Shown piece by piece: positions 190 to 53,000 of a stretch of 64,000 nucleotides of DNA. The stretch spans positions 25,462-89,461 of the forward strand of contig JAMOAW010000002.1 of assembly GCA_039908535.1 (NCBI GenBank), read 5' to 3'. The notes under the pieces are model-generated. The model was given only the letters and a program-made list of their open reading frames with translations, was not told the origin of the DNA and did no database searches. Position numbers and translations under genes: made by a program. Numbering within the stretch: the first letter of the stretch is position 1; every line of letters begins with the position of its first letter. The stretch is from Magnetococcus sp. DMHC-6 (GTDB taxonomy: Bacteria > Pseudomonadota > Magnetococcia > Magnetococcales > JADFZT01).

Positions 190-2432
190 CTACTCATCAA
201 GAGTCTCCAAATTTACGGTTACATCTTGAATATTTTTTTGTTCTTCTTCTGAATTTTGTCTTAATTCCAATTCAAGCCACTTCAAACCCTCATCAATGTA
301 ATGAGGCACTTTCCAATTATTATGCTTATCATCATTATTCATCATAATCAGGTTAAGTGCAAACTCTGTTTTCTTGAATGTACGTGACCAAACACGATTA
401 AACAATGCTTTTGCTATATCATCTAACGATTTTTTTTTCGAAACGCTTAAATTTAGTTTTTTGCGTGAGGAATGCTGACACCAATCTAAATTTTCCAATG
501 CAAACATCTCTTCAAATGTACGACCTACCAATAGTTTACTGTTTCCTTCCCAGGAAATTAATTGGTTAGTTTGAAAGGCTATGCGAATTTTTTTTGTAAT
601 GATTTTTTCATCCTCTTTTAATGATAGAAGTTCTTCGATCTTTATTGTATTCAATAATAACTTTTCAATGGTTTTATTTGATGTTATAGCACCAGGTGTT
701 GTTGTTTGACATGTGCCTTTAGGTTTTTTAGTATTTCCTTCTCCCTTTTCGGTATCTGTATTTTTAACATGTTCATGGATGCTATCTAAATCTGTAATTA
801 TAAGTGTAATAATCCCCAAAAACTCAATTAAATCTCTAAAAATATGGGCAAATGCACCACCGACTTCTAGAATACTCAAATATCGGAATTGAAGATCTTT
901 AGCTACCTTTTCGATTATTAAAGGTAACAATAACCGTTCGACATTGCCCTCTACAAGAATGGCAGCATCTGCAAAAAATAGATCACAATGGGTAAGTTTC
1001 ATGTATCGAATGAGAAATGCTTTTTCATCTTCACCAGAATCTCCTTTTTTAAATTGTGCAAGATTCAATACTCGACTATGGGAACGACATTCTTTCGTCA
1101 CCTCACGACGAAAATATCGTATAGAAGAAAAACCAGTTTCATAGAGGATATGAGGAGAATGGGTGGTAACTACCAATTGTGTTGATAATGTTTCTCCTAT
1201 TGGCATATTCAGGCTCAATGCTTTAAATACTTGACGAATAAATACTTGTTGAAGTTGGACGTGAAGGTGAGCCTCTGGTTCTTCAATAATGATCAAATGG
1301 AGCGGAGGGGGGGCAGGTACTAACCTCTTTTCTTTATAGTCGAGCAATTCCAAAATCATGTAAATCATATTTTTGAACCCTAACCCATTGTATCTGTCCG
1401 GCAAAGTCATATCAGAATCGTTATTTGCATCTAATCCTGGAAGACTATAATGGACCTCTGCATTCTCCTTTAATACACTTTCTGAATAATGGTTGCCCGC
1501 ACATTAAGGCGTGGCATGGTCAGGTTGGGATGTCCCATCCCCATTTCTTCTAAAGCTTTAAAAGTTGGCCTAAAAACAGTTGAAAACATTGAATTTATTA
1601 TTTGCTCTGACTCATTAATGGCTTGCATAACTTTATAATTATTTACTTTTTCTTTGTTATGCTGTTTAAAAAAGCGGCTGAAAAGTTTTGATAGATTTTC
1701 TGAACGAACAGAAGAATGAGAGGATTCCTTATCCGTCAGATGCCTCTGTGCATCCATGACATCTACTCTAATAAGATTATTCAAGACTACTTTACATTTC
1801 TCCCCCGTCTCTTCAAGGAGCGGAAAAGGGGTATAGTTTTCCTTTTTCTTATGGCCCTCAAATTCGGCATGATCCAAAACATAATAGTGAATGGCATATG
1901 ACTCATAGAGTTGTTTTGACAAATAATCGCAAAGATTTTTAGGCCATGGATGAAAATCTGATGTTTTTTCCTTCTGGTGAATACTTATATTGTCTTTAGC
2001 TTCTTGGCTGGCATTTTTAAAATCTTCTAGCAGCTTTGTTACATTTTTTGGTTTCCACTGTAAGCGTACACCTATCTTAGTACCTGTCCATTCCAGGCTT
2101 GGTATTAGGTGGATAACATGACGTAAATCACTATCTACGATTTCAAACCACATATCCAGGGTGATACAGGGAAAATCATTCGAGTCCACCTCTTTATTTT
2201 TTAAAGCTTGGTCTCCAAGTCGGTTAAATTCCTTCCAACATGGCGCATAAAAATCATGAAGAGTAAATCGCTCCCCAGCAGAAGAGTCTTTTAAAAATGG
2301 AATAAGTACGTGAGTGGCTGAAGTTTTGCCACTATTATTAGCACCAACAAAAAAAGTTGTTTCCTTGTCCATTTCAATATGAACATCTTTTAATCGGCGA
2401 TAATTTTTAATATGAAGCGATTCAAGACGCAT
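190..2432 (-). pseudogene. OLD-family ABC-type ATPase + Toprim nuclease (class 2 OLD / Gabija GajA-like), reading frame broken once (ORFs 1470..2432 and 190..~1500)
   Basis: N-terminal ORF: MRLESLHIKNYRRL...GANNSGKTS (Walker A). C-terminal ORF: signature-like NGLGFKN, Walker B LHLIIIEEPEAHLH, Toprim Glu (ILVEGNVERLLLP) and DxD (IITDLDS). Both frames are open across ~1470-1500. A 1-nt indel there would join ...PRLNVR to GNHYSESVLKENAEVHYSLPG.... Confidence 0.7.
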
Positions 2433-2649
2433 TTTTTTTATCCATAGAGGTAATTGCAAAAACCGGTAAAAATGGAAATTTATGGACCTTTTGAATCACA
2501 AAGGATCGTAATTTAACGTCCTTTCTGGTATTATGTGTTTGCTAAAAACGATCATAAACACAAGAAAGGACGGAAGAAAATGAATAGTCTTCGAGATGGA
2601 TTATCGCTTATTTGGAACAGAATTCAAGGGTCATTATTTCCTGAGCTTA

Positions 2650-13017: not shown

Positions 13018-13150
13018 GAACATGATGCCCTGTGGACAAAAAATTAAAATCAAAACCCTGGGGGCAATCCCCCAGACCCCTTTTTTCTTTTAATAAAAAA
13101 AAAGGGTGGGGGTGTTGGGGGCGGTTCTCCGCCCCCAAGGTCTTGAATGC
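13018..13150 (+). repeat. REP/MITE family 2 copy R2
   Basis: GAACATGATGCCCTGTGGAC...CCCTGGGGGCAATCCCCCAGACCCC...GGGGGCGGTTCTCCGCCCCCAAGGTCTTGA, between convergent genes. Confidence 0.85.
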
Positions 13151-13184: not shown

Positions 13185-14051
13185 TCAATATTCAACACGA
13201 CCTATTTTTATGGAACCTACACCTGAGTGATTTGCTATGACAACGTGTTGTGCATCATAAATTTTAATATTACCTGTTCCCTCTGAGCGAATCGTTGCAT
13301 CGACTGAGGTGCCATCAATCATAATATTTCCAGTTCCTTGGAGATCAATCGATAACTTATGAATCTCTCCATGCTCAACTTTTATATCACCTGTTCCATT
13401 AGAAACAATTTTTAGGTCTCCAGTGATGTGACCTATTTGAAGATTGCCTGTTCCTTGCAAGGTAATCTCTCCATCATGCAAGGCTGTAATCTCTACATCT
13501 CCATATCCAAGCATCTCCAGCTTAAAAGGGGCATCTGTCTTATTTATAGCAATTTTGGCACCAAAACTTTTAATGTTGAGTGGGAGTGAACGAGGGGCTA
13601 AAATATGAATTTTAGGAGAGTTTGCTGTAGAATTTTGATCACCAGGAAGGTTAATAGTGCCTATGGATACATTTCCACCACGAACGACAACATTTCCATT
13701 AATCTGCACATTTGAGGAAGTTATTATAGAAGAATTGGAAGATTTACCCATCTCCTTGAGTGTGACTTGCCCGCCTTCAGTATGTGTATGAATAGCGTTA
13801 ATGGCGTTTGTATCCCCTAAAAATTGGAAACGAATATCTTCACGTTGCTCTGTATCTATTTGAATTTGTGCAGATTCAGCCTGAATTTCGAGTTTATTTC
13901 CATTTAGAGTAATATTTTTTTCATCCGCAAAGAGTGGATTATGTAAGAGTGAAAAAAATGTGATAACATTTAATAAAATAAACTTACTTCGTGCAGATAA
14001 ATAAGTCATTAAAAAAAAATTTTTTTGACTTTTTTTGTTAATTTTTTCCAT
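13185..14051 (-). CDS. Secreted DUF2807/GIN-domain beta-helix protein
   Basis: Repeated LQGTGNLQI / SNGTGDIKV / LQGTGNIMI / SEGTGNIKI / HSGVGSIKI rungs. Hydrophobic N-terminus (alternative start ATG 14009). Confidence 0.65.
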   Translation of the reverse strand: MEKINKKSQKNFFLMTYLSARSKFILLNVITFFSLLHNPLFADEKNITLNGNKLEIQAESAQIQIDTEQREDIRFQFLGDTNAINAIHTHTEGGQVTLKEMGKSSNSSIITSSNVQINGNVVVRGGNVSIGTINLPGDQNSTANSPKIHILAPRSLPLNIKSFGAKIAINKTDAPFKLEMLGYGDVEITALHDGEITLQGTGNLQIGHITGDLKIVSNGTGDIKVEHGEIHKLSIDLQGTGNIMIDGTSVDATIRSEGTGNIKIYDAQHVVIANHSGVGSIKIGRVEY

Positions 14052-14103: not shown

Positions 14104-14706
14104 CTATTTTACTGATTTATCTGATCCAATTAAGGGAAGATTCGTCTCTTTCAAAACAATTCCTGGTGCAACATGAGATGGGTTAGCAATGTGGGGCACA
14201 GGGGATATTAAAGGTTGCATCATGTATTTTTCACTATTTTCCTTTTTTAACAAATCTTGCATATCTTGTCCAACGATAGCATAAAAATTTTCCATTTCAG
14301 TAAGGATTTCTTTGTCAAAAAATGTTTTTTTGGCCTTTTCAAGCAATTCACCCATAGCATCATAAGCGGCGCGTGCTGCTCGAATATTATTGCGTTTGCG
14401 AGATATGGTGACCAGACCAGATTGCGCTTTGAGTTGATAGGCTAAATCAGCCGTATAAAGAATTTGGTTATAGATCTTTTCTGCATCATCCAGTTGGTTT
14501 TCACGTTCCATAAAATGGCCTAGTTGTAACAGTGTCATACTGTTTTTCGGACAATGATGCATAATTCTATTAAGAAGTTCACGATTTTTAGTGACGCTTA
14601 AGTTTTGTACATCAGGAACTTGAAAACAAGGATCAAAAGCAAAAGCCGTATTCACAATAAAGAACAGAAGGATGCTATTAGCAAATCCACATAATTTCAA
14701 AAACAT
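14104..14706 (-). CDS. Secreted TPR-like protein (paralogue of 14802..15410)
   Basis: Signal peptide ending AFAFDPC. Shared blocks with its neighbour: HHCPKN..LLQLG...E.Q.DDAEKIYN....DL.Y.L.AQ.GL..I.R...IR.A. 200 aa. Confidence 0.6.
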   Translation of the reverse strand: MFLKLCGFANSILLFFIVNTAFAFDPCFQVPDVQNLSVTKNRELLNRIMHHCPKNSMTLLQLGHFMERENQLDDAEKIYNQILYTADLAYQLKAQSGLVTISRKRNNIRAARAAYDAMGELLEKAKKTFFDKEILTEMENFYAIVGQDMQDLLKKENSEKYMMQPLISPVPHIANPSHVAPGIVLKETNLPLIGSDKSVK

Positions 14707-14801: not shown

Positions 14802-15410
14802 TTACTTAAAATTAACACCTCCAAAACCAACATCTGACTTATCATCAACTGCAACAGTTCCGATATCAGTTTTATCAGAATATTTATTACTAAATCCACG
14901 TGTATTATTATATGGTTGCAATGTATTTACAGTTCCACGATTTTGTTTCATTCTATCCAAAATATTATGTCTTAATTTTGTATATGTATTCTCAGCTTTA
15001 TTAAGAGCACTCATATTTGAAAAAGATTTCAAATTTTTGGCTTTTTCAATCATGACACCCAAGGCCTCATTGGCCTCTTGAGCTTTACGAATATCACCGC
15101 TTTGACGCGCTATGGAAGCCAATCCAGTTTGAGCCATGAGGCTGTAGCTTAAATCAGGACCCGTAACAACACGGTTATAGACATTTTCTGCTTCTTCTAA
15201 ATTTCCCTCTTGCTCAAACATAAATCCAATTTGAAGTAAAGCTTCCTGATTTTGTGGACAATTATTAATAATTTTAGAGAGTAGGGAGTGGCTTTGAATA
15301 GGAGTTAAACCTTGCTGATTAAATTGATCGTTACAGGGATCAAATGCTAATGCAGAATTAATCATGCAAAAGAAAATGATAAAGCTCATTATTTTGCAAA
15401 AATTATTCAT
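14802..15410 (-). CDS. Secreted TPR-like protein (paralogue of 14104..14706)
   Basis: Signal peptide ending ALAFDPC. Collinear similarity to the previous ORF. 202 aa. Confidence 0.6.
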   Translation of the reverse strand: MNNFCKIMSFIIFFCMINSALAFDPCNDQFNQQGLTPIQSHSLLSKIINNCPQNQEALLQIGFMFEQEGNLEEAENVYNRVVTGPDLSYSLMAQTGLASIARQSGDIRKAQEANEALGVMIEKAKNLKSFSNMSALNKAENTYTKLRHNILDRMKQNRGTVNTLQPYNNTRGFSNKYSDKTDIGTVAVDDKSDVGFGGVNFK

Positions 15411-15441
15411 TTGATTTGACCCCTTTATGTGTTATTGCCGT

Positions 15442-16155
15442 TTATTTATACACATGAAACTCAATTCGGCGGTTTTTTGGATTTTCGGGGTCTAAACCCG
15501 CAATAGGTTTCGTTTTTCCCATACCAACGGGAACCAAACGCCAATCTTCAATGCCATTACGGACCAGATAATCTTTGACCGACATGGCCCTTTGCCAAGA
15601 CAATTGACGATTCATTTCATCATTCCCAACCGCATCCGTGTGTCCTTCAACAATTAAAGTAGAATTTTTTGCAGCTGGTGATTTGAGTGCTTCTGCCATA
15701 GTGTTCAAATAGTCATAGGTTGCAGACGATAAAGCTGCAGAACCACTTTTAAACTGTATCGGAAAGGAGACTCCCCCAGAAGAACCGCGTTCTGACTTCG
15801 TTTGAGATAATTCAGAGGGCACAGCTTGTTTCGCACTCTCTTTCGCACTCTCTTTCGCACTCTCTTTCGCACTCTCTTTCGCACTCTCTTTCGCAACTTC
15901 ATTCGAGGGAGCAGGGGAGGGGGTGGTTTTAAATTGAATAGATCTTGTTTTACGCTCTTTCTTAGGCTCAGAAGAGGGCTCAGAAGGAGGAGTAGCCGCA
16001 GAATCAAATAAAATATTTACCAATTCAGAAGCCTCTGGTGCTTTTTCATAAACTTTGGCATCACTCACATCACCCCCGATAACTAAATTTGGAGATAATA
16101 TAGAAGCACTCAGAACAATTGCGAATGATAATTTTAAAAAATCTTTTTTTATCAT
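15442..16155 (-). CDS. OmpA/MotB-type peptidoglycan-binding protein with (AKES)n linker
   Basis: C-terminal LIVEGHTDAVGNDEMNRQLSWQRAMSVKDYL...RRIEF (OmpA_C). N-terminal signal peptide. Confidence 0.85.
   Translation of the reverse strand: MIKKDFLKLSFAIVLSASILSPNLVIGGDVSDAKVYEKAPEASELVNILFDSAATPPSEPSSEPKKERKTRSIQFKTTPSPAPSNEVAKESAKESAKESAKESAKESAKQAVPSELSQTKSERGSSGGVSFPIQFKSGSAALSSATYDYLNTMAEALKSPAAKNSTLIVEGHTDAVGNDEMNRQLSWQRAMSVKDYLVRNGIEDWRLVPVGMGKTKPIAGLDPENPKNRRIEFHVYK
15833..15895. repeat. 12-bp in-frame tandem repeat GCACTCTCTTTC x5 (+ partial), encoding (AKES)n in the OmpA-like gene
   Basis: Five perfect units read directly at 15833-15892. Confidence 0.9.
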
Positions 16156-16199
16156 CTTTTCCCTCTTGGTATATTGCTAGCAAAAGCATTAAATTTGAA

Positions 16200-17729
16200 T
16201 TATTTAATGGTCAATTGTAATTTTCCATCAACCACTGGAACATTTAAAGCAGAAAATGAACTGCTTATTTTGTTCATATTATATCCCTGAATGACTTCAA
16301 GATCAGCACCCGATATCACGCTCGGCAATTTGTTCGTCACATCTGTTGTTGCAGCAAAACATTGAATCGTTTCTACCGAGTTTGGATAATCAAAAACAAT
16401 ACTAAATGGCATATTACCATCTGGAAGTTCAATTCCGCCCTGCTTAAGAAGAGCATTTTGGTTAAATCGATTAGGAAAAATTTTAATGACAGAATGATTC
16501 CCTTGCTCCCAAAAGCAATAGGTATATGCATTCTCCGTTAGGTTTAGAGAGATGATCATACTCTCGCCCACTTTATATTCTTTTTTGGGTGAAGATAATA
16601 AAATTTGTAAATTTGTACTTGTTGCTTGATTGCCTCCTCTGGCTTCAATTTCACGGACAATTTTAATGTGTTTAGCAATATTGTCCGCAATAGGTATGTT
16701 TAAATATGCCTGAAGCCAAATATTCGACGGAACATTATCCAATGAATTGGCTGTGTAGTGTATATTTTGTTTCTTGAAAATCACATTAACAGCATCTATA
16801 GCCTTAGAAGAATTTCGTGGATATTCGTCTTGAAAATATCCATATGCACCCAATATTAAGTCACCGATAGCCGCCGATCCATCCTCATTGATACTGTCTT
16901 CAATTTGACGAACCAACCTTTTATCAGGTTCAGATCCTGGTATAAGACGCCAATAGGGTACAGCAAACTGTCGTCCTAATAGTTGTACAACACTTACTTC
17001 TACAAGTTGTCGGATGGCCGCATGTACACCTTGTGACTTACTGGCACTGCCAGACATTCCAATCCCAGATCCAAAAATAGAAAATGACCAACCGGATGAT
17101 TTACTCTCTTTTTTAATATTAATCGTATTGGAGGTAAGGGCTCCAAGGGAGGTTTGGGAAACATAGTCCAACATGCTAAAATCAATGGTCATACGTGATT
17201 CATTAAAATCGTTATCATTAGACGTCCCTGCATCTACAGAAGAATTCCCAATAGGTATAGAAATATCCATATCTTTTGAGGTGCCTTTTGTAGAAACATC
17301 TTTATCAAATTCAGTAATTGCACCACTAATAACAAAATTGGGGATTTTGGTAAGCCGAATGCCTTGGCGAATGTTGATTTCATTGCTCATATATTGAGGA
17401 TCGTAAGGAACATTGACAATAGGCATCCCAATCTTATTGACTGCCGTCGTAACCATGCGCGTAATATCACTAGGCAATCCAGCACCGGCCGTATCATTGT
17501 TAATGGGTTTTATCTGAAAGTACATGGGATTAGATGATGAGCGTCCTGTGTACGTCCGCAAAAGTTTACCAAAATTGTATATTACTTCATCGTAATCTGT
17601 TTGACGGGTTGTTACGGCTTCCGTTTCTTTCATTTCAATCACTGGCGCATCTGTGGCACAACCCGTTAATCCCAGCGGATAGACTCCTAAAATGGCAACC
17701 AGATGAAATAATCTCCAATTTTTTTTCAT
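16200..17729 (-). CDS. Outer-membrane lipoprotein, CsgG/HfaB-like N-terminal domain fused to C-terminal DUF4384
   Basis: Lipobox LGLTGC. IKPINNDTAGAGLPSDITRMVTTAVNKIG and FVISGAITEFDKD resemble CsgG-family blocks. The C-terminal KVGESMIISLNL..AYTYCFWEQGNHSVIKIFPNRFN fits the DUF4384 pattern. Confidence 0.6.
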   Translation of the reverse strand: MKKNWRLFHLVAILGVYPLGLTGCATDAPVIEMKETEAVTTRQTDYDEVIYNFGKLLRTYTGRSSSNPMYFQIKPINNDTAGAGLPSDITRMVTTAVNKIGMPIVNVPYDPQYMSNEINIRQGIRLTKIPNFVISGAITEFDKDVSTKGTSKDMDISIPIGNSSVDAGTSNDNDFNESRMTIDFSMLDYVSQTSLGALTSNTINIKKESKSSGWSFSIFGSGIGMSGSASKSQGVHAAIRQLVEVSVVQLLGRQFAVPYWRLIPGSEPDKRLVRQIEDSINEDGSAAIGDLILGAYGYFQDEYPRNSSKAIDAVNVIFKKQNIHYTANSLDNVPSNIWLQAYLNIPIADNIAKHIKIVREIEARGGNQATSTNLQILLSSPKKEYKVGESMIISLNLTENAYTYCFWEQGNHSVIKIFPNRFNQNALLKQGGIELPDGNMPFSIVFDYPNSVETIQCFAATTDVTNKLPSVISGADLEVIQGYNMNKISSSFSALNVPVVDGKLQLTIK

Positions 17730-18151
17730 TTTACTTCGATTCCTTGCGTATGAACGGTCGTATTGATCTTTTTATTACGAATGTTGGTCCCTTTAAGAAC
17801 ATCCACCTGTCCTACATTAACATCAGGGTCTTCACCAGCAAGTTTGTTTATTTTTATTTCTTTATTGGTATCTACATAGTTGACAATTTTCTTTTTATTG
17901 TTATTATTATCAATTGTTTGGTTGCAAAGATTGTATGTCTTACCACCTGCCTGTTTTGTTTGACGTATTTGCTCATTTATTTCTTTGTCATCGCAGTACT
18001 GATAGGATGTATCCCCATAAGCACCCGAATTTTTTTGCATCTCTTCGCGTTGCTTAATCAAATTACCTTGTAATGAGCCAGCCAAGAGAGATCCAGACGT
18101 AAGCACGATGACACTCAATATTGTAGCAAATTGAACAAAAATTTTTTGCAT
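17726..18151 (-). CDS. Small secreted protein, translationally coupled to the CsgG-like gene
   Basis: 141 aa with a signal peptide (..LLAGSLQG). Its stop overlaps the downstream ATG (ATGA at 17726-17729). The C-terminal VNVGQVDVLKGTNIRNKKINTTV resembles the repeat of the four small paralogues. Confidence 0.6.
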   Translation of the reverse strand: MQKIFVQFATILSVIVLTSGSLLAGSLQGNLIKQREEMQKNSGAYGDTSYQYCDDKEINEQIRQTKQAGGKTYNLCNQTIDNNNNKKKIVNYVDTNKEIKINKLAGEDPDVNVGQVDVLKGTNIRNKKINTTVHTQGIEVK

Positions 18152-18229
18152 TTAGGTATCCCCATACACGCCAGAAAGTAACTTTTGAGATTTATATCCC
18201 AATAGTTAAACATAATATCACATGTAAGA

Positions 18230-18544
18230 TTAGTGAATCTTTACGCTACCAACATTCACTTGAGATTTACCAGAACTCGTGATATCGCCTGTCTCAGATT
18301 CTGTTTTAATCTCACTGTTTTGCATCTTTGTTCCTCGACCAATATCGACACTGGATGCATTAACCGTTGAAGTGTCAGAAGCTTTAATATTGCCGGTTTT
18401 CGCACTTGTCTCGATTCTGCTGTTCTGAATTGTCGTACCTGGACCAGAATTACTCTCTTCGCTTAACGATGTAAGACTTCCAGCACATAAAGGATTCATG
18501 ACAGCAAAAACAGCTACCAATGTAATGGCAGATACCAATTTCAT
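18230..18544 (-). CDS. Small secreted two-repeat protein, paralogue 1
   Basis: Signal peptide, then two ~33-aa repeats TTIQNSRIETSAKTGNIKASDTSTVNASSVDIGRG / TKMQNSEIKTESETGDITSSGKSQVNVGSVKIH. Confidence 0.7.
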   Translation of the reverse strand: MKLVSAITLVAVFAVMNPLCAGSLTSLSEESNSGPGTTIQNSRIETSAKTGNIKASDTSTVNASSVDIGRGTKMQNSEIKTESETGDITSSGKSQVNVGSVKIH

Positions 18545-18663
18545 GTGAAAACTCCTTATTCTGTTTGGAGGATGAATAGTAGAATATATATTAAATAAAA
18601 ATCATGTATAAAATATACAATCTTTACGCCAATAAATTGGCGTAAAGATTGTTCATTGATTGA

Positions 18664-18972
18664 TTATTGAATCTTGACACCACCCGCATTGACTTCTGAC
18701 TTATCAGAAGCTTTGATATTGCCAGTATCTGAACTGGCTTTGATTTCAGAGTTTTGAATCGTGGTGCCACGTCCAATCTCAACAGTGGCTGCTCCGACTT
18801 TGGATTCGTCTGAAGCTTCAATGTTGCCAGTTTTGGCATCGGTAGTAATTTTGGTATTCTGAATCGTGGTCTCTTTGCCACCACTACTAATGGCCGTTAT
18901 GCTGTCCGCAGAGGCAGAACCAATGACAACAAAAAGAGATGTAACAAAAGCAATGGCTGATAACGTTTTCAT
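18664..18972 (-). CDS. Small secreted two-repeat protein, paralogue 2
   Basis: MKTLSAIAF... start (ATG 18972). Repeats TTIQNTKITTDAKTGNIEASDESKVGAATVEIGRG / TTIQNSEIKASSDTGNIKASDKSEVNAGGVKIQ. Near-identical at DNA level to paralogue 3. Confidence 0.7.
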   Translation of the reverse strand: MKTLSAIAFVTSLFVVIGSASADSITAISSGGKETTIQNTKITTDAKTGNIEASDESKVGAATVEIGRGTTIQNSEIKASSDTGNIKASDKSEVNAGGVKIQ

Positions 18973-19113
18973 TTCGTTGCGTACTCCCCACAAAGATAGA
19001 TAATTTGTTGCTTCAACATTTACTACATGACAAAAAAATATTCATTCATCTAATTCAAATAAAGATTATATTTCATACACTGAAAGTCAGCGTATGAAAT
19101 ATATTATATTTGA

Positions 19114-19425
19114 TTATTGAATTTTGACACTACCAGCATCAACTTCTGACTTATCAGAAGCATTGATATTTCCGGTATCTGATTTGGCCTTTATTTCAGA
19201 ATTTTGAATTGTCGTGCCACGTCCAATCTCAACAGTGGCTGCTCCGACTTTGGATTCGTCCGAAGCTTCAATATTTCCAGTTTTGGCATCGGTAGTAATT
19301 TTGGTATTCTGAATCGTGGTCTCTTTGCCGCCACCACTACTAATTGCAGTTATGCTGTCTGCAGAAGCAGAGCCGATGACAACAAAAAAAGATGCTGCAA
19401 AAGCAATTATTGGAAACTTTCTCAT
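19114..19425 (-). CDS. Small secreted two-repeat protein, paralogue 3
   Basis: 103 aa with the same architecture. Long stretches are identical to 18664..18972. Confidence 0.7.
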   Translation of the reverse strand: MRKFPIIAFAASFFVVIGSASADSITAISSGGGKETTIQNTKITTDAKTGNIEASDESKVGAATVEIGRGTTIQNSEIKAKSDTGNINASDKSEVDAGSVKIQ

Positions 19426-19601
19426 TTTGTTTTGTACTCCTTTGAAGAAGGAAAGGAACGATAGTTTGTAAATATAATTATATTACATCATAAGTATAGC
19501 ATACATTGTGTTGCGATGTCAAGATCGTTTTTAATTTGATTAATATATTTAATTATATATTTAATTTTTTTAAAATAATTATATTAATATAAAATATAAT
19601 C

Positions 19602-19750
19602 CGAACGATGCCCTGCGGAAAAAAAATCAAATGCCAAACCCTGGGGGATGAATCCCCCAGACCCCCTCTTTTTTTTAAAACTTAAAAAAAAGAGGGGGTC
19701 TGGGGGGCAGTTCTCCGCCCCCCAAAGGTCTTGATTTTTTCCGATACATT
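19602..19750 (+). repeat. REP/MITE family 2 copy R3
   Basis: CGAACGATGCCCTGCGG...CCCTGGGGGATGAATCCCCCAGACCCCCTC T-run / A-run GAGGGGGTCTGGGGGGCAGTTCTCCGCCCCCC...CCGATACAT. Confidence 0.85.
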
Positions 19751-19759
19751 AAAATTTGA

Positions 19760-20068
19760 TTATTTAATCTTTACACCACCAGCATCAACATCTGAATTTC
19801 TTAATGCTTTAATATTTCCTGTATCAGAGGTTGTCTTAATATCTGAGTTTTGAATTTTTGTGCCACGTCCAACTTCAACGATAGCCGCTCCAACTGTGGA
19901 ATTGTCTGCACCTTCAATATTACCGGTTTTAGCCTCTGTATTCAAAGTAGAATTCTGGATCGTGGTTGTATCGGTTGAACCACCTGAACTAAGTGCAGTT
20001 AGACTATTAGAAAAGGCCGATGTTATAAAAATAAAAGTAGAAACAACGAATGCAAATAATGAGAACAT
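19760..20068 (-). CDS. Small secreted two-repeat protein, paralogue 4 (5' end abuts or overlaps a REP copy)
   Basis: MFSLFAFVVSTFIFITSAFS..., then TTIQNSTLNTEAKTGNIEGADNSTVGAAIVEVGRG / TKIQNSDIKTTSDTGNIKALRNSDVDAGGVKIK. ATG 20068..20066 lies inside the GAACAT terminus of REP R4. Confidence 0.6.
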   Translation of the reverse strand: MFSLFAFVVSTFIFITSAFSNSLTALSSGGSTDTTTIQNSTLNTEAKTGNIEGADNSTVGAAIVEVGRGTKIQNSDIKTTSDTGNIKALRNSDVDAGGVKIK

Positions 20069-20223
20069 AATGCCCTGCGGGAAAAAAAAATCAAATGCCA
20101 AACCCTGGGGGATGAATCCCCCAGACCCCCTCTTTTTTTTAAAACTTAAAAAAAAAGGGTGGGGGGAATTGGGGGGTGGCTCTGCCCACCCAAAGGTCTT
20201 GATTTTATTTTTCCAATACATAA
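20063..20223 (+). repeat. REP/MITE family 2 copy R4
   Basis: Full-length copy GAACATAATGCCCTGCGGG...CCAATACAT. Confidence 0.85.
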
Positions 20224-20250
20224 ATATTTTCATTCCATACTCCATAATAT

Positions 20251-20375
20251 GAACATAATGCCATTCGGGCAGAAAATAAAAAACAAAAAACTGAGGATTG
20301 AATCCCCAGACTCCCTCTTTTTTTAAATATTAAAAGAAAAGGGTAGGGGATTGAGGGGAGCAGTTCTTCTCTGAT
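20251..20375 (+). repeat. REP/MITE family 2 copy R5 (diverged), tandem to R4
   Basis: GAACATAATGCCATTCGGGCAG...CTGAGGATTGAATCCCCAGACTCCCTC.... It ends just before the caspase gene stop. Confidence 0.7.
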
Positions 20376-20383
20376 TGATAAGC

Positions 20384-22882
20384 TTATTCTTTAACTACCT
20401 GAAAATCCATCCCAGTGGAATTAAAGACAGGTGTTTGGTCATCTGTTTTATATTTATATACCAACAAAGGGACTTCTTGATGCATGTAGGTCAGTAATTC
20501 TTTGACAAAAATTGTCCCGTCTTCAGGTTTTTTGTCGGCTTGACCATCTAAACCAGTCAATATCGAATAGGTAAATATACCGTGTCCTAGCTCTGTCAAC
20601 TCATTAGCAGCTTGATTCCCCGTGGTGGCCGTCGCAATATGAATTCCTGTTGCACGCGCCAATTTTGCCATAGAACGTTGCTTATCAAAACTGGCAAACG
20701 CAGGCAAAGCTGAACCAGAGTAACACGCATCAATAAGGAGTAAAATTTTTTGCGCACCTATGTGGGCGATATATGATTTGAGTTCATCTGATGAAAGACC
20801 TTGCGTAGTAACAGATTTTTCCTCACCATCAAAATTGGTTGGAATAAAATACCAACGATTATTCATAGACACACCATGTCCTGCAAAATATAAAACAACC
20901 GTATCTTCAGGGGGAATGCGTTGTAGAGAATCCAAAGAAGTTTCAATCTGCTTTTTGGTCGCTTTTTGGTCGTAAATTTCGTATGTTGTTATATTATTGA
21001 AAACATTTATATATTTTTTTAAGAAAAAATCAAGAACGCCTTTGGCATCTAACACAGAAAAATCAAGATTCATTTCTTGAATTTGGTATTGATTGATCCC
21101 TACAACAAAAATATGCAATTTTGGTTTTATAGAAGCTTGGGTGACAGAGTCACCACCCGTAGGTGGTGATGCCACTTCTGTAGACGCAGATTTGGCATCT
21201 GGTGCTGTCGGTCTCTGGTTGGATTTTTCATCTTTGAGCTGATAGGATAATTTTTCTTCAATCGGTTCGCTCTCTATAAGATCTTTACTTAAACCAACTG
21301 TTTTTAGTACATTTTGTCCATTTACCAATTCGACACGATAAACCGTCTTTAACATTTCACCACTATCTTCAGTCAGATTTTCAGATGAAATAATTCGGCT
21401 TTTATCAATAATTTTTTGATTATGAAATAATCGGATCTCTTGAATTCCGCCGCCCTGATCCAGAGCATCAATACTCACATCCACCTCTTTAGAATAGCCG
21501 TTGGCATCAGGATTAACTGGTTTGATGATCATTTTAGGAGGCAGATAAAAACCATCGGATACCACCGGGACAACCGTGTTTTCTACAACATCTTTTTTTG
21601 CGAGAAGTTTACCAAGTAGGGCAGGGCGATAATAATTTTCAAGAAAGCCATCTAAAGCGAAAGAGTGTTGATCGCCTGCCCATTGAATGGCATCTAAACG
21701 ATCTTCAATGGCACCGTCTAAGGTTCCATCAAAATAGCCTTCTGGTGTGACAACCGCCCATCCCTCTTGCATAGAAACCAGACGTGCGATCTCCTTACCC
21801 GTTTCTTGATTCCAAACACGAAGCGTTTGGTCTGTTCCACCAGAGATCAACCAATCCTTCCCAGAGGCAAAAGTGACTGCATTGACCCCTTTTTGATGTC
21901 CCTCTAGGCGACGTATTTCGCGTCCATCGGAAACATTCCAAATGCGAAGGGTTTTATCCTGGCTGGCAGTGGCGAGGAAACGATGGTCTTGCGTAAAAGC
22001 CACTCCATTCACTTTTTCTTCATGCCCCGTGAATGTGGCCAATTTAGAACCGTCTGCAGGGTTCCAGAGATATGCTTGACCATCCTCGTGTCCTGTCACC
22101 AAAAATCGACCATCTGATGACCAAGCAATGCACAGAACAGCTCCTGTCGAAGCGTTCCATTCTAGAATAGGTTTTCCATCCATGGACCAAATTTGCACAC
22201 GACCATCTGATCCCGCCGTTGCCAATGATTGATTATCAGGAGCAAGGACCAAACCGTTTATTTGTTTTTCATGCGTTTGGATTGTTGACAATGGAGAAGC
22301 TGTTCTGAGATCCCAAATGCGTAGGGTGCCATCTAGGCTGGAGGTAATCAGTCGTTTTCCGTCGCGGGTAGGAGCCACACCCGTCACACTTCCGGTGTGA
22401 CCACGAAACGTAAGGAGGGTTTCTCTGGTCTCCATACGCCATAAACGCGCCGTACCATCCTCACTCCCAGTCACCAAAAAAGCTTTGCCAGCAGGGGCCA
22501 TCGACAAATTTTTTGGTAAAGGCGTTCCAAAAAACTCTTCCAAATTTTCAACAAAGGCCACACTGCGTACAGGCTGATTATGACCTGTGAGATTGACCTC
22601 TCTCTGACCATTATCAACATTCCAAACTTGAACTGCATGATTGCCGCTGGCACTTGCAAACCAAGTACCATCAGGACTAACAGCCACATCGTTGATGGCA
22701 GAACTATATCGAGATTGAATTTTAAACGTGGGTTTAAAAATTTGTCGTGTGTTTTTTTGTATCGCTTTGACAATGGTTTTGCTGGAATTGAACATGGCTG
22801 GACGGCTCTCGGCTGGTTGGCTGAAAAAGAGCAATCCTGTCAAAATAGATATGAAGCAAAGGTAGACCAAAAAGCGTTTCAT
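20384..22882 (-). CDS. Exported WD40-repeat protein with C-terminal caspase-like (peptidase C14) domain
   Basis: Signal peptide. Multiple WD40 blades (..H..V..VAF.PDG..L.T.S.DGT.R.W..). C14 dyad contexts VVLYFAGHGV (His) and KILLLIDACYSGS (Cys). 832 aa. Confidence 0.85.
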   Translation of the reverse strand: MKRFLVYLCFISILTGLLFFSQPAESRPAMFNSSKTIVKAIQKNTRQIFKPTFKIQSRYSSAINDVAVSPDGTWFASASGNHAVQVWNVDNGQREVNLTGHNQPVRSVAFVENLEEFFGTPLPKNLSMAPAGKAFLVTGSEDGTARLWRMETRETLLTFRGHTGSVTGVAPTRDGKRLITSSLDGTLRIWDLRTASPLSTIQTHEKQINGLVLAPDNQSLATAGSDGRVQIWSMDGKPILEWNASTGAVLCIAWSSDGRFLVTGHEDGQAYLWNPADGSKLATFTGHEEKVNGVAFTQDHRFLATASQDKTLRIWNVSDGREIRRLEGHQKGVNAVTFASGKDWLISGGTDQTLRVWNQETGKEIARLVSMQEGWAVVTPEGYFDGTLDGAIEDRLDAIQWAGDQHSFALDGFLENYYRPALLGKLLAKKDVVENTVVPVVSDGFYLPPKMIIKPVNPDANGYSKEVDVSIDALDQGGGIQEIRLFHNQKIIDKSRIISSENLTEDSGEMLKTVYRVELVNGQNVLKTVGLSKDLIESEPIEEKLSYQLKDEKSNQRPTAPDAKSASTEVASPPTGGDSVTQASIKPKLHIFVVGINQYQIQEMNLDFSVLDAKGVLDFFLKKYINVFNNITTYEIYDQKATKKQIETSLDSLQRIPPEDTVVLYFAGHGVSMNNRWYFIPTNFDGEEKSVTTQGLSSDELKSYIAHIGAQKILLLIDACYSGSALPAFASFDKQRSMAKLARATGIHIATATTGNQAANELTELGHGIFTYSILTGLDGQADKKPEDGTIFVKELLTYMHQEVPLLVYKYKTDDQTPVFNSTGMDFQVVKE

Positions 22883-22965
22883 GGTTTTGTTAGCTTCCCC
22901 CCATAAAAAGAATCTTTATCTTTAATAAAATATTAAAAAAAATTTTTTTTGTCAAGAATATTTAC

Positions 22966-23838
22966 TTAATTTTTAAAATTTTTTATTAAATCAAAATTTG
23001 CATGTATTTTAGAAAGAATTCGGGGCCACTCCTTTACCCAGCAACATTGATGATCAAAACTGGCGATAACACGTACTGAAATGGTTTTTGGGTCAGCAAA
23101 TTTATTTTGAAATGCATACGTCACTTCAGGAGGTACAATACGGTCCTGTGCTCCAATAAAATGAATTTGCGGTATATGTTGTAATGTCGAGGTATCCTCT
23201 GCTGGATCAAGGGAATCTGGCATACTAGAAACTCCGTGCCATTTGGTCCACATAGCGACATCTAAATTGGCGGCGATGGTCAATAACCAAGCAATATCCT
23301 TGCGCTCCCTCGCAATCAAGGTCGCCACAGTACCTCCTCCAGAATAACCAACCAGAGCAATGGAATCCGTTTTTGTTTGGGCTTTGACAACATCAATAAC
23401 CCTTGCCATAGCCACAATCACCTCCTGCGAATAACGGTGAGAAGTCCAATAGCGAACATCACACTCTTTTGAAATATTATCAACAAATTGACAAGGTCTA
23501 CTCACATATAAAACCTTGGATGAGGGATCCTGAAGAGCCAATTTTAAAGCAATCGGATTGGTCGGAGAGGGATTTTTTGAAGGTGTCCTTTGATTTAGCC
23601 AAGCCCTCCCATCGCCTTCAATGTAAACAACGAGTAAATCACTTGGTTCTTTTAAAATACGCAAAAAACCTCGTAGATGAAAAAAACCTGTTTCCCATTC
23701 TACCGATGAAAATCCACTGTGCTGTGCTAATTCAGAGGCTTCTTGCCATCGCACCATCCAAGAAGGGGTGCAACTCACGCCCCATATGCTGCATAAACAG
23801 TATATAAAAATTTTTCGCCATTTGTTAGAAAAATACAT
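22966..23838 (-). CDS. Alpha/beta-fold hydrolase, probable lipoprotein
   Basis: N-terminal signal with ..WGVSC. Nucleophile elbow LVGYSGGG. 290 aa. Confidence 0.6.
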   Translation of the reverse strand: MYFSNKWRKIFIYCLCSIWGVSCTPSWMVRWQEASELAQHSGFSSVEWETGFFHLRGFLRILKEPSDLLVVYIEGDGRAWLNQRTPSKNPSPTNPIALKLALQDPSSKVLYVSRPCQFVDNISKECDVRYWTSHRYSQEVIVAMARVIDVVKAQTKTDSIALVGYSGGGTVATLIARERKDIAWLLTIAANLDVAMWTKWHGVSSMPDSLDPAEDTSTLQHIPQIHFIGAQDRIVPPEVTYAFQNKFADPKTISVRVIASFDHQCCWVKEWPRILSKIHANFDLIKNFKN

Positions 23839-24051
23839 TATTTAAATCCTGATTTTCCCCAAATATTTTTTGTTTAATTTTTTTTATTCCAAAATCATGA
23901 CGTACAATTTTTTTAAAAAAACTTAACATATCTTGACATTTATATCAATATTTGATAAATTCTATATAAACATAAAGAAAAAAAATAAAAAGATGGCGTT
24001 TCTGACGCAATTAGGGTGAACGATTCTTCAATAATATGGAAGGATAGTGCT

Positions 24052-35375: not shown

Positions 35376-36206
35376 TTATTGCAATAAATTCAATACCTGC
35401 TTTGGTTGCAAATTAGCTTGCGCTAAAATGGCAATGCCTGCTTGCTGAATAATACTATTTCGGGCCAAAAGGGTGGCTTCTTGAGCAACATCGACATCCA
35501 TAATATGAGACCTAGCAATTTGAAGATTTTCAGAACCACTTGTCAGGGAGGAGATGATCGATTCAAACCGATTTTGAAAGGCCCCCAATTGGGAGCGAAT
35601 AGAGGTGACGGAATCTAGCGCGGTATCCACCAAACCAATCGTTGTACTTGCATTGGCCATGGTACTGACATTGGCCAATGTGCCTCCCACCCCCAATCCA
35701 ATGGCACTGTTCACCGCCCCCATAATGGAGATTTGGATGGTTTGCATGGCATCGGTGCCAATTTGAAATTTTTTATTGGTAAAGCCACCACTCAATAAAA
35801 TTTGGTTGTTAAAATCGGTGTTATTGCCGATTCGATCAATTTCGGCAACCAGTTGCATGACCTCCGTGTTGAGATCGTTTCGATCGGTATTGGTCAAGGA
35901 GGAGGTGTTGGCTTCCACCGCCTTTTCTCGGATTTGTTGCAAGGCCTCCACGGTTTGGCTGAGAGCCTCGTCGGCGATTTGAGTGAGAGATAACCCATCG
36001 TTGGCATTGGTAATCGCTTGATTCATCCCTCGGATATTGGCTGTCAAGCGGGTACTGATTGAAAGTCCAGCTGGATCGTCTTTGGAACTGTTGATGCGCA
36101 ATCCAGAAGCCAATCGGTTATAATTGATACTTAGATTATTGGTAGAACGAGCTAGATAGCGTTGAACCGACAATGCGGCAATGTTGCTATTGATTGAAAG
36201 AGCCAT
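35376..36206 (-). CDS. fliC: Flagellin
   Basis: MALSINSNIAALSVQRYLARSTNNLSINYNRLASGLRINSSKDDPAGLSIS... and C-terminal ...LAQANLQPKQVLNLLQ. Start taken at ATG 36206, not at the ORF maximum 36332. Confidence 0.9.
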   Translation of the reverse strand: MALSINSNIAALSVQRYLARSTNNLSINYNRLASGLRINSSKDDPAGLSISTRLTANIRGMNQAITNANDGLSLTQIADEALSQTVEALQQIREKAVEANTSSLTNTDRNDLNTEVMQLVAEIDRIGNNTDFNNQILLSGGFTNKKFQIGTDAMQTIQISIMGAVNSAIGLGVGGTLANVSTMANASTTIGLVDTALDSVTSIRSQLGAFQNRFESIISSLTSGSENLQIARSHIMDVDVAQEATLLARNSIIQQAGIAILAQANLQPKQVLNLLQ

Positions 36207-36403
36207 GAACCAATCTCCACTGCTGTTATTATTGTTATCCAGCGGATATTTACCCAATTTAGGTATAAATTTAATTATAGTGCGGATTTCTTCCGCTTGA
36301 TTTATCCTACCAGGGTTGATAATTTGCGTCAAGAACGGAATTGCCTTGAATGAGATGAAGAAGCAACTTTTTTGAATTATCGCAATGAAAGGAGAAAAAT
36401 AAT

Positions 36404-50065: not shown

Positions 50066-53000
50066 ATGCAAGCCGGCACAATACTTGCCGAAAACCGCTA
50101 TACCATCCTAAAACAATTGGGAGAGGGAACCTTTGGTTCGACGTTTTTAGCCCTGGAGGAGAGTTCTAGGCTGAAAGTCGTTGTCAAGCCAATTGGGCCA
50201 ATAGTGGTTGGCGATGATCGAGAATTTAACAATTTGATAAAAAATTTCCATTTTGTTCATCATTTGGATCATCCCTGTATTGCCCAACTTCACGCTTTGG
50301 AATATGATGCCAAAATTGGGCAACATTTTCTGGTCATAGAATATATTGATGGCCAAAATTTAAATGAATTTCGTAAAAAACAACCCGACGCAAAACTCAC
50401 GGTGTTGGATGCTCTACATATTTGTCAACAAATAGCCGATGTTTTAGACCATTCCCACCGCACCATTTTACATCGTAATCTTAAACCTGAAAATATATTT
50501 ATATATGCGGACGGAATGGTCAAATTAACCGATTTTTGCCTGACTTCAGAAGCCATGCGGGCGCAATTATTGCAAAGCCGCACGATATGCCAGGGGGGGC
50601 AAACATTTCCCCATCCCTATCTGGCCCCGGAACAGCTCTTCTCATTTCCTCCCCCAGGACCAGCGGCAGATCGGTACGCATTGGCGGCCATTTTTTATGA
50701 ACTGGTGGCTGGCTCTCCCCCCCCATGCAACCAAATTAAATCCACGGAACTGGCGAAAAAAAATGATTTGGTTGGCAACGAATCGTTTAAACCGCTGGAC
50801 AAACTGAGTAAACGTCAAAATATTGTGTTAGCAGAGGCCCTCTCCCAAAATCCCGCTTTGCGTTATCCTTCGGCTGGAGAGTTTATCGAGGCCTTGACAC
50901 CCACCCGGTATACCACGCTAGGTAGCCACAGTCACACCCTTATGCTATTAGGCGGCCTTACCCTTATTGGTGGACTGACCGCTTTGTTGCTATTTTCTGA
51001 TGGTTGGGGCCCCGCGCCCTTCTCTGCCACCCCTCCACAAACAGAAAATCAGCCGTTAAATAATGAGATCACGACCTTGGCCTTACAAATTCATAGCGTA
51101 CCGGAAGGGGCCAATTTAATATTGAACGATCAATCTATTGGCCAAACGCCTTTTATTGGCAAAAAGGTACTCAAAGGTCGTTATCATATTCGTTTGGAAA
51201 AATCGGGATATAAAACTACCGACATCGAGGTGACCCTCAACGCCGATACCCGGCTTGACTTAACCTTGGTTGCTGAAATAGCGGATAAAACCATTGTATC
51301 TGAACAAGAACCTCTTGGCAAAGGGCTGACCAAACATATCCAAGAATTGCTTGATGCCGCCAACCAGGATATCAAAGCCGACCGACTCACCGCGCCGGTC
51401 AACAATAATGCCTACGAAAAATTGCATCAAGTATTGGATTGGGATCCCAACAACGCCGAAGCCAAAGCATCCCTGACCAAAATAGTCGATATATATCTTA
51501 AATTAACCGATGAAAACGCCACCAACTTGGAAGAGGCCGCCAAATATTTAGAAAAAGCCTCTACAATCCAACCAAATGATCCACGCATTAAAGAATATGA
51601 GAAAAAAATGGATGTCTGGTTGCGCGAGCGGCGTTTGACAGTTCTTCTTGAATTGGCCCAAAACCACGTCGATGCCAATCGTCTGACACAACCCGATGGG
51701 AACAACGCCCTAGAGGTCTACCAACAAATTTTACGCATTGATCCCAACCATGCCGAGGCGTTGACCGCCGTCAAAGGGATGATCAACGATCTATTAAAAG
51801 AGGCCCGTGCCGATATTAAAGCCGAGCGTTTCATCGCACCAGATAGACAAAACGCCTTGGAAAAATTTCGTTTTATCCTAAAAATAGATCCCAATAATAC
51901 CGATGCCCAAGCGGCAATTGAATCGCTCTTTGACCACTATTTAACCTTAGCTAAAAAAGCCAAAAATGATGTGGATGAGATGAATCGTCAATTGGATATG
52001 GCCAACAAAGTGCGACCAGACGACTCTAGAATTGAACTCTACCGCCAAAAAATAAACACAGATTTACAAAAAAAGGCCGAGTCTGAACAACAACAAAAAA
52101 TTCACGATACCCTGCAACGCGCCCAACACTATTTGGAGGCCGACCAACTGACCCGTCCAGAACAAAACAACGCCTGGACCCAATTGCAGGCCGTTTTGCA
52201 ATTGGACCCTGAAAATGGTGCGGCAAAAGCCGGAATCGATCAACTGGTTGAAAAGCTATTTCGTTTTGTCGACATCGATATTCAAGAGCGACGCCTGAAC
52301 AATCCCCCCACGCGCAACGCCTTGGAAAAATTGCGCACCCTTGAAGAGATTCGGCCCAACGAACCCAGAATACAAAGTGCTCGCGAACGCATTGGTACCA
52401 TGTATCTGGAAATGGCCACGCAAACACAAGGGGAGAAGGCCGAGCAATATCGGCAGCAAGCGACCCTGCTGCTGCCCAAGTCATCCACAACGGATACCCC
52501 CTCCAATCCTCTGGAGCAACTCTCTGCCCTTCCTCAAGGGGAGATAGAAACCCTTTTAAAACAAGCGCAAGATGATCTAGAGGCCCAACGACTCACCCAG
52601 CCATCCGATCAAAACGCCATGGTGAGATTTAAAAAAGTTTTGCAATATGACCCGCAAAATCAACGTGCCCTGGCCGGATTGCGCGAAGTCGCGCATCAAT
52701 TAGTTCTCTTTGCCCAACAAGATCTTAAAGAGGAACGCCTCTCTAAACCAGCCAATAAAAACGCCCTGGATCGCTTTCGTCTCGCCCTAGAGGTAGACCC
52801 CAACAACCAAGAGGCCCAGCAAGGGATTCGCGATGTTGCCAGGGCATTGTTAAAAATGGCCCTGGAGATGGCTACAAAAAAACCTAACAATGCCGAGCCA
52901 TTGTTTCAAAAAGCCGCGCTCATTTTACCCGAAGATGAAGAGATCAATTTGGCCTATCAAGCGTTCAAAGGCAACAACGGTATACAAAAACCCCTAGAAC

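Follow-up and report, generated by a model that had tools for sequence, protein, structure and literature searches.

A predicted exported caspase-fold protease of Magnetococcus sp. DMHC-6 and the envelope genes that accompany it

Introduction

Caspase homologues are abundant in bacteria, almost none of them has a known substrate or role, and the debate about them has centred on cell death. Here we describe one such gene on a 64,000-nucleotide stretch of the genome of the magnetotactic bacterium Magnetococcus sp. DMHC-6 (GenBank assembly GCA_039908535.1, contig JAMOAW010000002.1, positions 25,462 to 89,461 of the forward strand; this whole stretch is called the window, and positions are counted from its first letter). 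The gene product carries a signal peptide, a WD40 propeller and an Ig-like domain ahead of a C-terminal caspase-fold domain. The reading that we favour, with a little less than even confidence, is that this caspase is an exported Arg/Lys protease that would work with the hydrolase lipoprotein encoded beside it, assisting outer-membrane export and surface-structure modules by limited proteolysis.

The closest described systems are of several kinds. Among prokaryotic C14 proteins, WD40 repeats are found in 10.9% and FGE-sulfatase domains in 4.9%, OmpA genes accompany them in 14 operons, and dozens have N-terminal helices that are likely signal peptides (Asplund-Samuelsson et al. 2012). The catalytic dyad is mutated in 44% of cyanobacterial orthocaspases, according to the orthocaspase literature. 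Acidic S1 residues have been described in TbMCA2 (Asp95 and Asp211) and in MALT1 (Asp365, Asp462 and Glu500) (PMC4357240). In the Fap system of Pseudomonas, the cysteine protease FapD is exported via Sec, and the secretion of amyloid subunits through an autotransporter-like barrel depends on its catalytic Cys (PMC5557850).

Set beside these systems, the type of protein described here and its domain network are already known, from the literature and from public annotation. The initial annotation of the window had named a co-occurrence network of caspase, DUF4384, FGE-sulfatase, kinase, WD40 and TPR domains, and the literature does list WD40, FGE-sulfatase and DUF4384 as orthocaspase partners. 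The wiring of the caspase with envelope modules appears to be undescribed. In the literature we found no description of a conserved envelope neighbourhood of an exported caspase family, of the CsgG-fold/DUF4384 cassette that lies downstream of the gene, or of exported caspase-fold proteases recurring beside that cassette, and no full text that pairs a CsgG-like protein with a caspase.

Results

The caspase open reading frame (ORF) has a public record, MEO5376305.1 ("caspase family protein", from the Magnetococcus sp. DMHC-6 metagenome-assembled genome), with an identical start codon, and a purine-rich stretch lies 5' of its ATG. In the C-terminal 276 residues, positions 6-226 of the 233 in the Peptidase_C14 profile (PF00656; clan CD, caspase-hemoglobinase fold) were matched with an E value of 1.4e-14 and a score of 54.8 bits, the cut-off being 21.4. 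The seven blade motifs of the WD40 propeller ("xxxWx") begin at residues 84, 145, 187, 229, 270, 312 and 354. Pfam gave no match in residues 365-561, a region in which relatives have the Ig-like domain PF17957; it includes a linker domain of about 70 residues that is the most conserved stretch of the whole family. An AlphaFold2 (AF2) model of residues 372-832, built on an alignment of 55 sequences, reached a mean predicted local distance difference test score (pLDDT) of 87.9 and a predicted template modelling score of 0.88, and is laid out as a small conserved domain, a beta-sandwich and a caspase-type alpha/beta domain. When this model was compared with the PDB by Foldseek, the top eight matches were the MALT1 paracaspase (E values of 1e-9 to 2e-8), with Ig-like domains next. 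A single-sequence search of the PDB with the C14 domain gave no match.

The catalytic dyad consists of His669, in the motif YFAGHG (from residue 665), and Cys720, in the motif IDACYSG (from residue 717). Both residues are invariant in family alignments of 17, 15 and 55 sequences, and in a search with a profile of the protease domain they aligned with the catalytic YSGHGG and DSCHSG motifs of the yeast metacaspase Yca1 (4f6o). The same search also matched Arabidopsis MC4 (AtMC4) and Geobacter GSU0716. The initial annotation had judged the dyad to be intact and had named misassignment of its residues as a risk; the invariance in the family, the Yca1 alignment and the MALT1 fold agree on the assignment, and that fear was not borne out. 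The ORF product is, on these sequence and fold comparisons, a C14B-type cysteine protease (the type of metacaspases, paracaspases and orthocaspases) and is predicted to be catalytically competent.

Three acidic residues, Asp612, Asp718 and Glu761, are also invariant in the family. Asp612 aligns to the Asp of the NDA motif of Yca1 and Asp718 lies two residues before Cys720, and the pair stands at the positions of Asp95 and Asp211 in TbMCA2 and of Asp365 and Asp462 in MALT1. Glu761 is probably the equivalent of MALT1 Glu500. An acidic S1 pocket formed by these three residues predicts cleavage after Arg or Lys, not Asp, and the window caspase should therefore cut as other C14B peptidases do.

Signal peptides were called by a simple heuristic for n-, h- and c-regions with cytoplasmic proteins as controls, and hydrophobicity was expressed as the mean Kyte-Doolittle value over 11 residues (KD11). 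The N-terminus of the caspase has an n-region of +2, a KD11 of 2.78 and, at residue 26, a site with small residues at -3 and -1 (AES before the cut, RP after it), whereas the eight cytoplasmic controls from the window had KD11 values of 1.5 or less. A hydrophobicity scan of the caspase revealed no further hydrophobic segment beyond the N-terminus, and the mature protein contains only two cysteines. Signal-peptide features were present in 14 of the 14 full-length relatives checked, despite their diverged sequences; nine of these have canonical AxA sites and the remaining ones have small residues at -3 and -1. A signal peptide or a lipobox was found in the products of all 12 genes from 13185 to 23838. 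These data make it very likely that the caspase is exported via Sec into the periplasm, and by the same predictions export is a trait of the whole caspase family. The signal peptide named in the initial annotation is thus seen in the window caspase and in every relative checked. The accompanying remark that export is unusual for orthocaspases was overstated, because likely signal peptides had already been reported in dozens of prokaryotic C14 proteins by the 2012 survey.

Relatives of the caspase were gathered by a homology search with its C-terminal half and by a scan of one genome per species. The C-terminal-half search missed the identical public protein, so that absence from its list is not evidence of absence. 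The relatives share the same architecture at about 780-800 residues, with a best identity of 46%, and none has been named experimentally; they were found in Magnetococcales, Desulfobacterota, Rhodospirillales (Roseospira), Elusimicrobia and others. Neighbours were counted within 8 kb at 30 caspase-family loci, some with short flanks, by searching the ORFs with the window proteins and some locus proteins. The most frequent neighbour was an autotransporter-type beta-barrel of about 340-400 residues (15 of the 30 loci), followed by an alpha/beta-hydrolase lipoprotein (14/30), an OmpA-like protein (13/30), a Ser/Thr kinase (11/30) and a DUF4384 protein (7/30). FHA proteins were found at three loci, PP2C at two and an FGE-sulfatase protein at one. 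In the window itself the hydrolase lipoprotein gene is present (Table 1) and the autotransporter-type barrel is absent. The hydrolase belongs to a large family (at least 592 members), and hydrolase lipoprotein and barrel also form a widespread gene pair without a caspase (locus L039, 6122-9338; locus L040, 5869-7855). At L039 a FecR protein adjoins the pair.

Giant repeat-rich adhesin-like proteins adjoin the caspase module at loci L001, L003, L004 and L022. At L003 (1-22355) the caspase relative lies amid a giant repeat protein, an autotransporter-type barrel, a TolC-like protein, an ABC/HlyD pair of a type I secretion system (T1SS) and a LapD-like cyclic di-GMP receptor, a gene set that suggests a LapG-like role for the caspase at that locus. 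At L004 (1-22373) a relative is accompanied by the hydrolase, OmpA, a kinase, PP2C and two FHA genes within a type VI secretion system (T6SS) cluster (ClpV, VgrG, TssK, DotU). In Roseospira, the kinase near the caspase relative is fused to DUF4384. In Magnetococcus sp. MYC-9 (L011, 13418-14713), a stand-alone FGE-sulfatase protein of 431 residues is encoded 1 kb from the caspase orthologue.

Divergent from the hydrolase-caspase pair, the window encodes a homologue of the magnetotaxis protein MtxA (24016-24990, + strand) with the Ig-like and C-terminal domains of MtxA (DUF7354). A secreted protein of some 290 residues is encoded 3' of the caspase at two further loci of Magnetococcales; its similarity to MtxA was not significant. 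Neither the FecR proteins encoded next to CHAT genes nor the protein 3' of the caspase at L016 could be related significantly to MtxA.

Table 1. Coordinates of the caspase gene, its protein domains and the associated features in the window
Feature	Position	Strand	Remarks
Alpha/beta-hydrolase lipoprotein	22966..23838	-	Directly upstream of caspase; Pfam; intact GYSGG nucleophile elbow, family motif DHQCCW
WD40-Ig-C14 protease gene	20384..22882	-	Intact 832-aa ORF; relatives ~780-800 aa
Predicted signal peptide, residues 1-26, MKRFLVYLCFISILTGLLFFSQPAES followed by RP	22805..22882	-	n/h/c heuristic; AxA-type sites at same place in relatives
Seven-blade WD40 beta-propeller, residues ~58-372	21767..22711	-	Pfam WD40 E 2e-67
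Conserved linker domain, residues 373-445 (GWAVVTPEGYFDGTLDG...YYRPALL)	21548..21766	-	Family-defining; pLDDT ~80-93
Ig-like beta-sandwich, residues ~450-547	21242..21535	-	AF2 strands with pLDDT >90; Ig-domain Foldseek matches
C14 caspase-fold domain, residues 588-832	20387..21121	-	PF00656; His669 codon 20876-20878, Cys720 codon 20723-20725; S1 residues D612, D718, E761
Terminator-like hairpin and T-run	20291..20309	-	Just 3' of caspase stop codon
Small secreted two-repeat subunit, paralogue 4	19760..20068	-	Probable start MFSLF
Small secreted two-repeat subunit, paralogue 1	19114..19425	-	Strong promoter-like site 19522..19493; hairpin 19103..19067
Small secreted two-repeat subunit, paralogue 2	18664..18972	-	
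Small secreted two-repeat subunit, paralogue 3	18230..18544	-	
p141-family secreted protein, 141 aa	17726..18151	-	Stop overlaps start of CsgG-like gene
CsgG-fold/DUF4384 lipoprotein	16200..17729	-	Lipobox LTGC; CsgG-fold N-terminal domain, helical linker, DUF4384 beta-sandwich
OmpA-like peptidoglycan-binding protein	15442..16155	-	
Secreted TPR-like protein, first of two paralogues	14802..15410	-	Ends in the cassette's C-terminal motif, GGVNFK
Secreted TPR-like protein, second of two paralogues	14104..14706	-	
DUF2807 (GIN-type beta-helix) secreted protein	13185..14051	-	Last cassette gene; terminator-like site 13076..13057 follows
Ser/Thr kinase, Pkinase-PEGA-TPR-FGE-sulfatase	50066..53833	+	One transmembrane helix (~residues 292-311), later domains periplasmic; unlinked candidate partner

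Downstream of the caspase, a cassette of secreted proteins occupies positions 13185-20245 of the same strand and encodes four small repeat proteins, a p141-family protein, a CsgG-fold/DUF4384 lipoprotein, an OmpA-like protein, two TPR-like proteins and a DUF2807 protein. The initial annotation had placed the DUF4384 protein next to the caspase; five small genes separate the two, and the distance is 2.65 kb. DUF4384 (PF14326) matched residues 384-462 of this lipoprotein with an E value of 1.2e-12 (48.1 bits against a cut-off of 27). The CsgG model (PF03783) gave 19.1 bits against a cut-off of 20.8 (E value of 8.6e-4), and 20.6 bits for the relative at L041. In an AF2 model (pLDDT of 72.9), the N-terminal half of the lipoprotein has the CsgG fold, with a low-confidence insert of 30 residues (145-175) where the CsgG hairpin sits. 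All of the top 15 Foldseek matches in the PDB were CsgG (4uv2, 4uv3 and 6lqh; E values of 6e-6 to 1e-3, probability 1.0), and a search of the PDB sequences with a profile of the lipoprotein family gave no match. The lipobox LTGC is conserved in relatives.

The order of repeat-bearing proteins, p141 family and CsgG-like lipoprotein is kept in other Magnetococcales, in Sulfurimonas and in metagenomic contigs, and the p141-family gene always lies directly 5' of the CsgG-like gene. Many cassette proteins share a C-terminal end motif, G-[GS]-V-x-I-x. The small subunits, of about 100 residues, consist of a signal peptide and two 34-residue repeats, with 45-55% mutual identity; they are rich in T, S, G, I, K and N, and aromatic residues are absent. 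They belong to a rare family: of 1.84 billion cluster representatives searched exhaustively with a profile, 13 matched at an E value of 0.001 or below, two of them copies from the window. A relation between the small subunits and the DUF2807 beta-helix protein of the cassette was rejected (hhalign probability of 0.4%), and NCBIfam and PADLOC hold no models for the cassette proteins. The G+C content of the cassette region 14000-20000, about 36%, is lower than in much of the window (36-52%); a foreign origin or a compositional constraint of the repeat genes may lie behind this.

Exported caspase-fold proteases that are not orthologous to the window caspase flank the same cassette in other lineages. 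The protease differs between loci: it is of the WD40-C14 type here and at L049, and a TPR-CHAT lipoprotein in the Campylobacterota-type loci. On the metagenomic contig of L049 (2607-8656), a WD40-C14 lipoprotein of 666 residues with the lipobox TIGC is encoded 3 kb from a CsgG-like gene. At the Sulfurimonas-type loci L010 (10001-16284), L041 (6599-12132) and L042 (1369-6883), the CsgG-like/DUF4384 lipoprotein gene is followed directly by genes for a TPR-CHAT lipoprotein protease and a FecR-domain protein. Because exported caspase-fold genes are uncommon in genomes, we consider it unlikely that their presence in three independent lineages is due to chance, although this is an informal judgement. 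One possible explanation, which we rate as rather improbable, is that exported caspase-fold proteases are interchangeable accessories of an undescribed CsgG-like/DUF4384 cassette that would export two-repeat subunits, possibly fibre-forming ones, in a caspase-dependent biogenesis of extracellular fibres. If this were true, a fibre pathway with a caspase would sit beside mtxA in this magnetotactic bacterium.

Several observations weigh against a tie between the caspase and the cassette, and with it against the reading that we favour for this genome. The caspase family adjoins the cassette in this genome only (1/30 loci), and the cassette occurs without a nearby caspase-fold protease at L008/L009, L043, L045 and L052. 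A terminator-like hairpin lies 3' of the caspase, and a separate strong promoter-like site and further hairpins belong to the subunit genes; caspase and small subunits are therefore probably transcribed separately, and a single operon from the caspase to the DUF2807 gene is doubtful. A conserved Arg between the subunit repeats is present at L008, which has no caspase nearby, and absent from the CHAT-linked loci. We rejected this inter-repeat Arg as a caspase site, as it shows no correlation with the presence of a protease. The suggestion of the initial annotation that the caspase processes the repeat subunits thus stays plausible, if unproven: exported caspase-fold proteases do recur beside the cassette in three lineages, but the cassette is also found without one and the 29 other family loci are without the cassette.

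Elsewhere in the window, a Gabija gajA gene (190-2459, - strand) appears to be split into ORFs 190..1410 and 1470..2459, the first of which matches GajA models with an E value of 2e-144; a frameshift, decay to a pseudogene or an error of assembly might explain the split. A CHASE2-adenylate/guanylate cyclase gene (29622-31828, + strand) is split into two overlapping ORFs that divide the cyclase domain, and mutS (54368-56912, + strand) into two overlapping ORFs with domains I-II and III-V. Two TerD-domain genes beside a HAD hydrolase gene (32579-34441, - strand) and a flagellin gene (35376..36332) are seemingly unrelated to the caspase finding.

Discussion

An accessory role of the caspase in export and surface-structure modules starts from what the sequence comparisons, the model and the locus counts show: a signal for export, a caspase fold, conserved catalytic and S1 residues, and recurrent neighbours. 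The mature caspase would act in the periplasm alongside the lipoprotein alpha/beta-hydrolase encoded directly upstream. In most relatives it would serve a module made up of an autotransporter-type barrel and an OmpA-like anchor, which a membrane Ser/Thr kinase often joins; in this genome its module would be the adjacent cassette with its CsgG-like (curli-type) channel and small two-repeat subunits. As to substrates, docking and the effect of cleavage, we infer that the WD40 and Ig domains may dock a substrate or an envelope partner, and that cleavage may mature, release or gate exported proteins. Such an action would parallel that of the periplasmic cysteine proteases FapD, in Fap amyloid secretion, and LapG, in release of the adhesin LapA. 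The neighbours suggest trimming of exported surface or fibre proteins, not cell killing.

The main rival to this reading is that the caspase is the periplasmic input arm of an envelope signalling pathway of Ser/Thr kinase, FHA and PP2C proteins, in which it would sense or cleave and thereby switch a membrane kinase whose periplasmic domain is of the PEGA, DUF4384 or FGE type, much as TagR and TagQ act upstream of PpkA in T6SS; the position beside the cassette would then be incidental. The kinase, FHA and PP2C neighbours of many relatives suit such a role equally well, which counts against our preferred reading. The kinase genes found within 8 kb at 11 of the 30 loci often lie only 100-2000 bp from the caspase gene, and FHA and/or PP2C genes follow at L001, L004, L022, L025 and L027. 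The kinase-DUF4384 fusion of Roseospira, the T6SS cluster around L004 and the FGE-sulfatase protein 1 kb from the caspase in Magnetococcus MYC-9 point the same way, and both FGE-sulfatase and DUF4384 have been reported on a family of proteobacterial kinases. The kinase in the window would itself expose its PEGA, TPR and FGE-sulfatase domains to the periplasm. It is, however, the only kinase there, and no kinase, FHA or PP2C gene lies near the caspase. It is encoded 27 kb away among the housekeeping genes miaA, mutS and recQ, with no FHA or PP2C partner, and because this gene context is unrelated, its presence in the window carries little weight. The same applies to the remark of the initial annotation that three members of the domain network share one 64-kb window: all three are indeed present, but the third is this distant kinase. 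An adjacent kinase is absent from all of the Magnetococcales relatives (L011-L018, L024), barrel and hydrolase are commoner partners across the family, and the hydrolase-barrel pair exists without caspase or kinase. On balance we regard the signalling role as unlikely, though worth keeping in view.

The caspase might instead be a protease for general housekeeping or quality control in the periplasm, without a partner of its own and with neighbours that reflect a shared envelope location only. This would account for L002, L015, L023 and L026, which have no recurrent neighbour at all, and for the differences in neighbour sets between lineages. Against this, the same four or five neighbour families recur in Magnetococcales, Desulfobacterota, Rhodospirillales and others, and the WD40 and Ig domains and the strictly conserved linker of 70 residues point to a specific binding partner. 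We consider this explanation quite improbable.

Still less probable, in our judgement, is an effector of programmed cell death, stress or anti-phage defence, a role proposed for cytoplasmic orthocaspases; once activated, it would destroy envelope proteins and so kill the cell or arrest it. The caspase fold is generally associated with conflict systems, the protein has a sub-threshold match to "caspase_w_EACC1" (68.6 bits against a cut-off of 140) and a weak PADLOC "caspase" match, and a Gabija GajA gene is present elsewhere in the window. That gene, however, is split and 18 kb away; scans with Pfam, NCBIfam and PADLOC revealed no NTPase, NACHT, TIR, effector-associated or other sensor partner; and the neighbours are genes for envelope building and signalling, not defence genes. 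A known anti-phage system was also rejected, with PADLOC returning generic caspase and WD40 matches only and no partner genes. The death reading is weak because an exported protease cannot reach cytoplasmic targets. The death or stress pathway entertained in the initial annotation finds no support in a periplasmic enzyme that matched no defence-system model.

That the caspase is not exported or not catalytic (an uncleaved anchor, an annotation artefact or a pseudo-protease scaffold) is hardly credible, for while the export call is heuristic, the site between AES and RP is less canonical than AxA and 44% of cyanobacterial orthocaspases have a mutated dyad, the public annotation has the same start codon, the signal-peptide property is kept across 14 relatives as their sequence diverges, and the His, Cys and S1 residues are invariant in 55 sequences.

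The interest of the accessory protease that we favour lies in the combination of an exported family with intact catalytic residues and reproducible envelope neighbours. In this genome, candidate substrates are encoded next door (the four small repeat proteins and a few more of the cassette's secreted products), and so the question of what a bacterial caspase cuts becomes directly testable. The analysis also reveals a rare CsgG-fold secretion cassette without named components.

Compared with orthocaspases and other C14B proteins, the window caspase is alike in PF00656, the His-Cys dyad, the acidic S1 pocket, the WD40 accessory and the OmpA/FGE-sulfatase/DUF4384 network. Cyanobacterial orthocaspases, as reviewed in the literature, nearly always have the protease domain ahead of the accessories, whereas here WD40 is N-terminal, followed by the family's own linker and an Ig domain. 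The window caspase further differs in being, by prediction, wholly exported and in having an envelope neighbourhood of its own (hydrolase lipoprotein, autotransporter-type barrel, OmpA and kinase). Its best structural match is MALT1, with a caspase-like fold (Foldseek E value of 1e-9, about 255 aligned columns, 12-15% identity), three acidic S1 residues at equivalent positions (probably so for E761), and a protease joined to an Ig-like domain. Unlike MALT1, the window caspase is bacterial and predicted to be periplasmic, its Ig domain precedes the protease, and it has neither a death domain nor a CBM-complex context.

The LapG/LapD system likewise has a periplasmic cysteine protease that cuts an exported surface protein, and the giant repeat protein, T1SS and LapD-like gene at L003 recall it; none of these Lap-type genes is present in the window, and LapG belongs to a different peptidase family. 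The TagQRST-PpkA-PppA-Fha1 pathway resembles the caspase loci in that accessories of the periplasm and outer membrane act upstream of a Ser/Thr kinase in the membrane that is partnered by FHA and PP2C proteins, and the relative at L004 lies in a T6SS cluster. The window, by contrast, has no adjacent kinase, FHA, PP2C or T6SS gene, and no caspase is known in that pathway.

The cassette shares with curli a CsgG-fold lipoprotein and several small secreted subunits with imperfect repeats of strand-turn-strand type, rich in T, S, N, G and Q. The subunits matched no Pfam family, curlin repeats included, at an E value of 0.1 or below, and homology to CsgA was rejected, as hhalign against E. coli CsgA aligned the signal peptides only. 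Pfam and NCBIfam revealed no homologues of CsgB, CsgC, CsgE or CsgF among the cassette proteins. The putative channel of the cassette is fused to a helical linker and DUF4384, and curli has no protease component. With a curli-like layout in which curlins and CsgB, CsgC, CsgE and CsgF are absent, the cassette therefore resembles type VIII secretion and is not a curli system.

The protease FapD differs from the window caspase in being a small C39-type peptidase with no caspase fold and no sequence relation to it, and the Fap channel is FapF where the cassette has a CsgG-like lipoprotein. The two systems are alike in arrangement: in both, a Sec-exported periplasmic cysteine protease is encoded together with secreted repeat subunits and an outer-membrane channel, protease and channel being predicted as such in the window.

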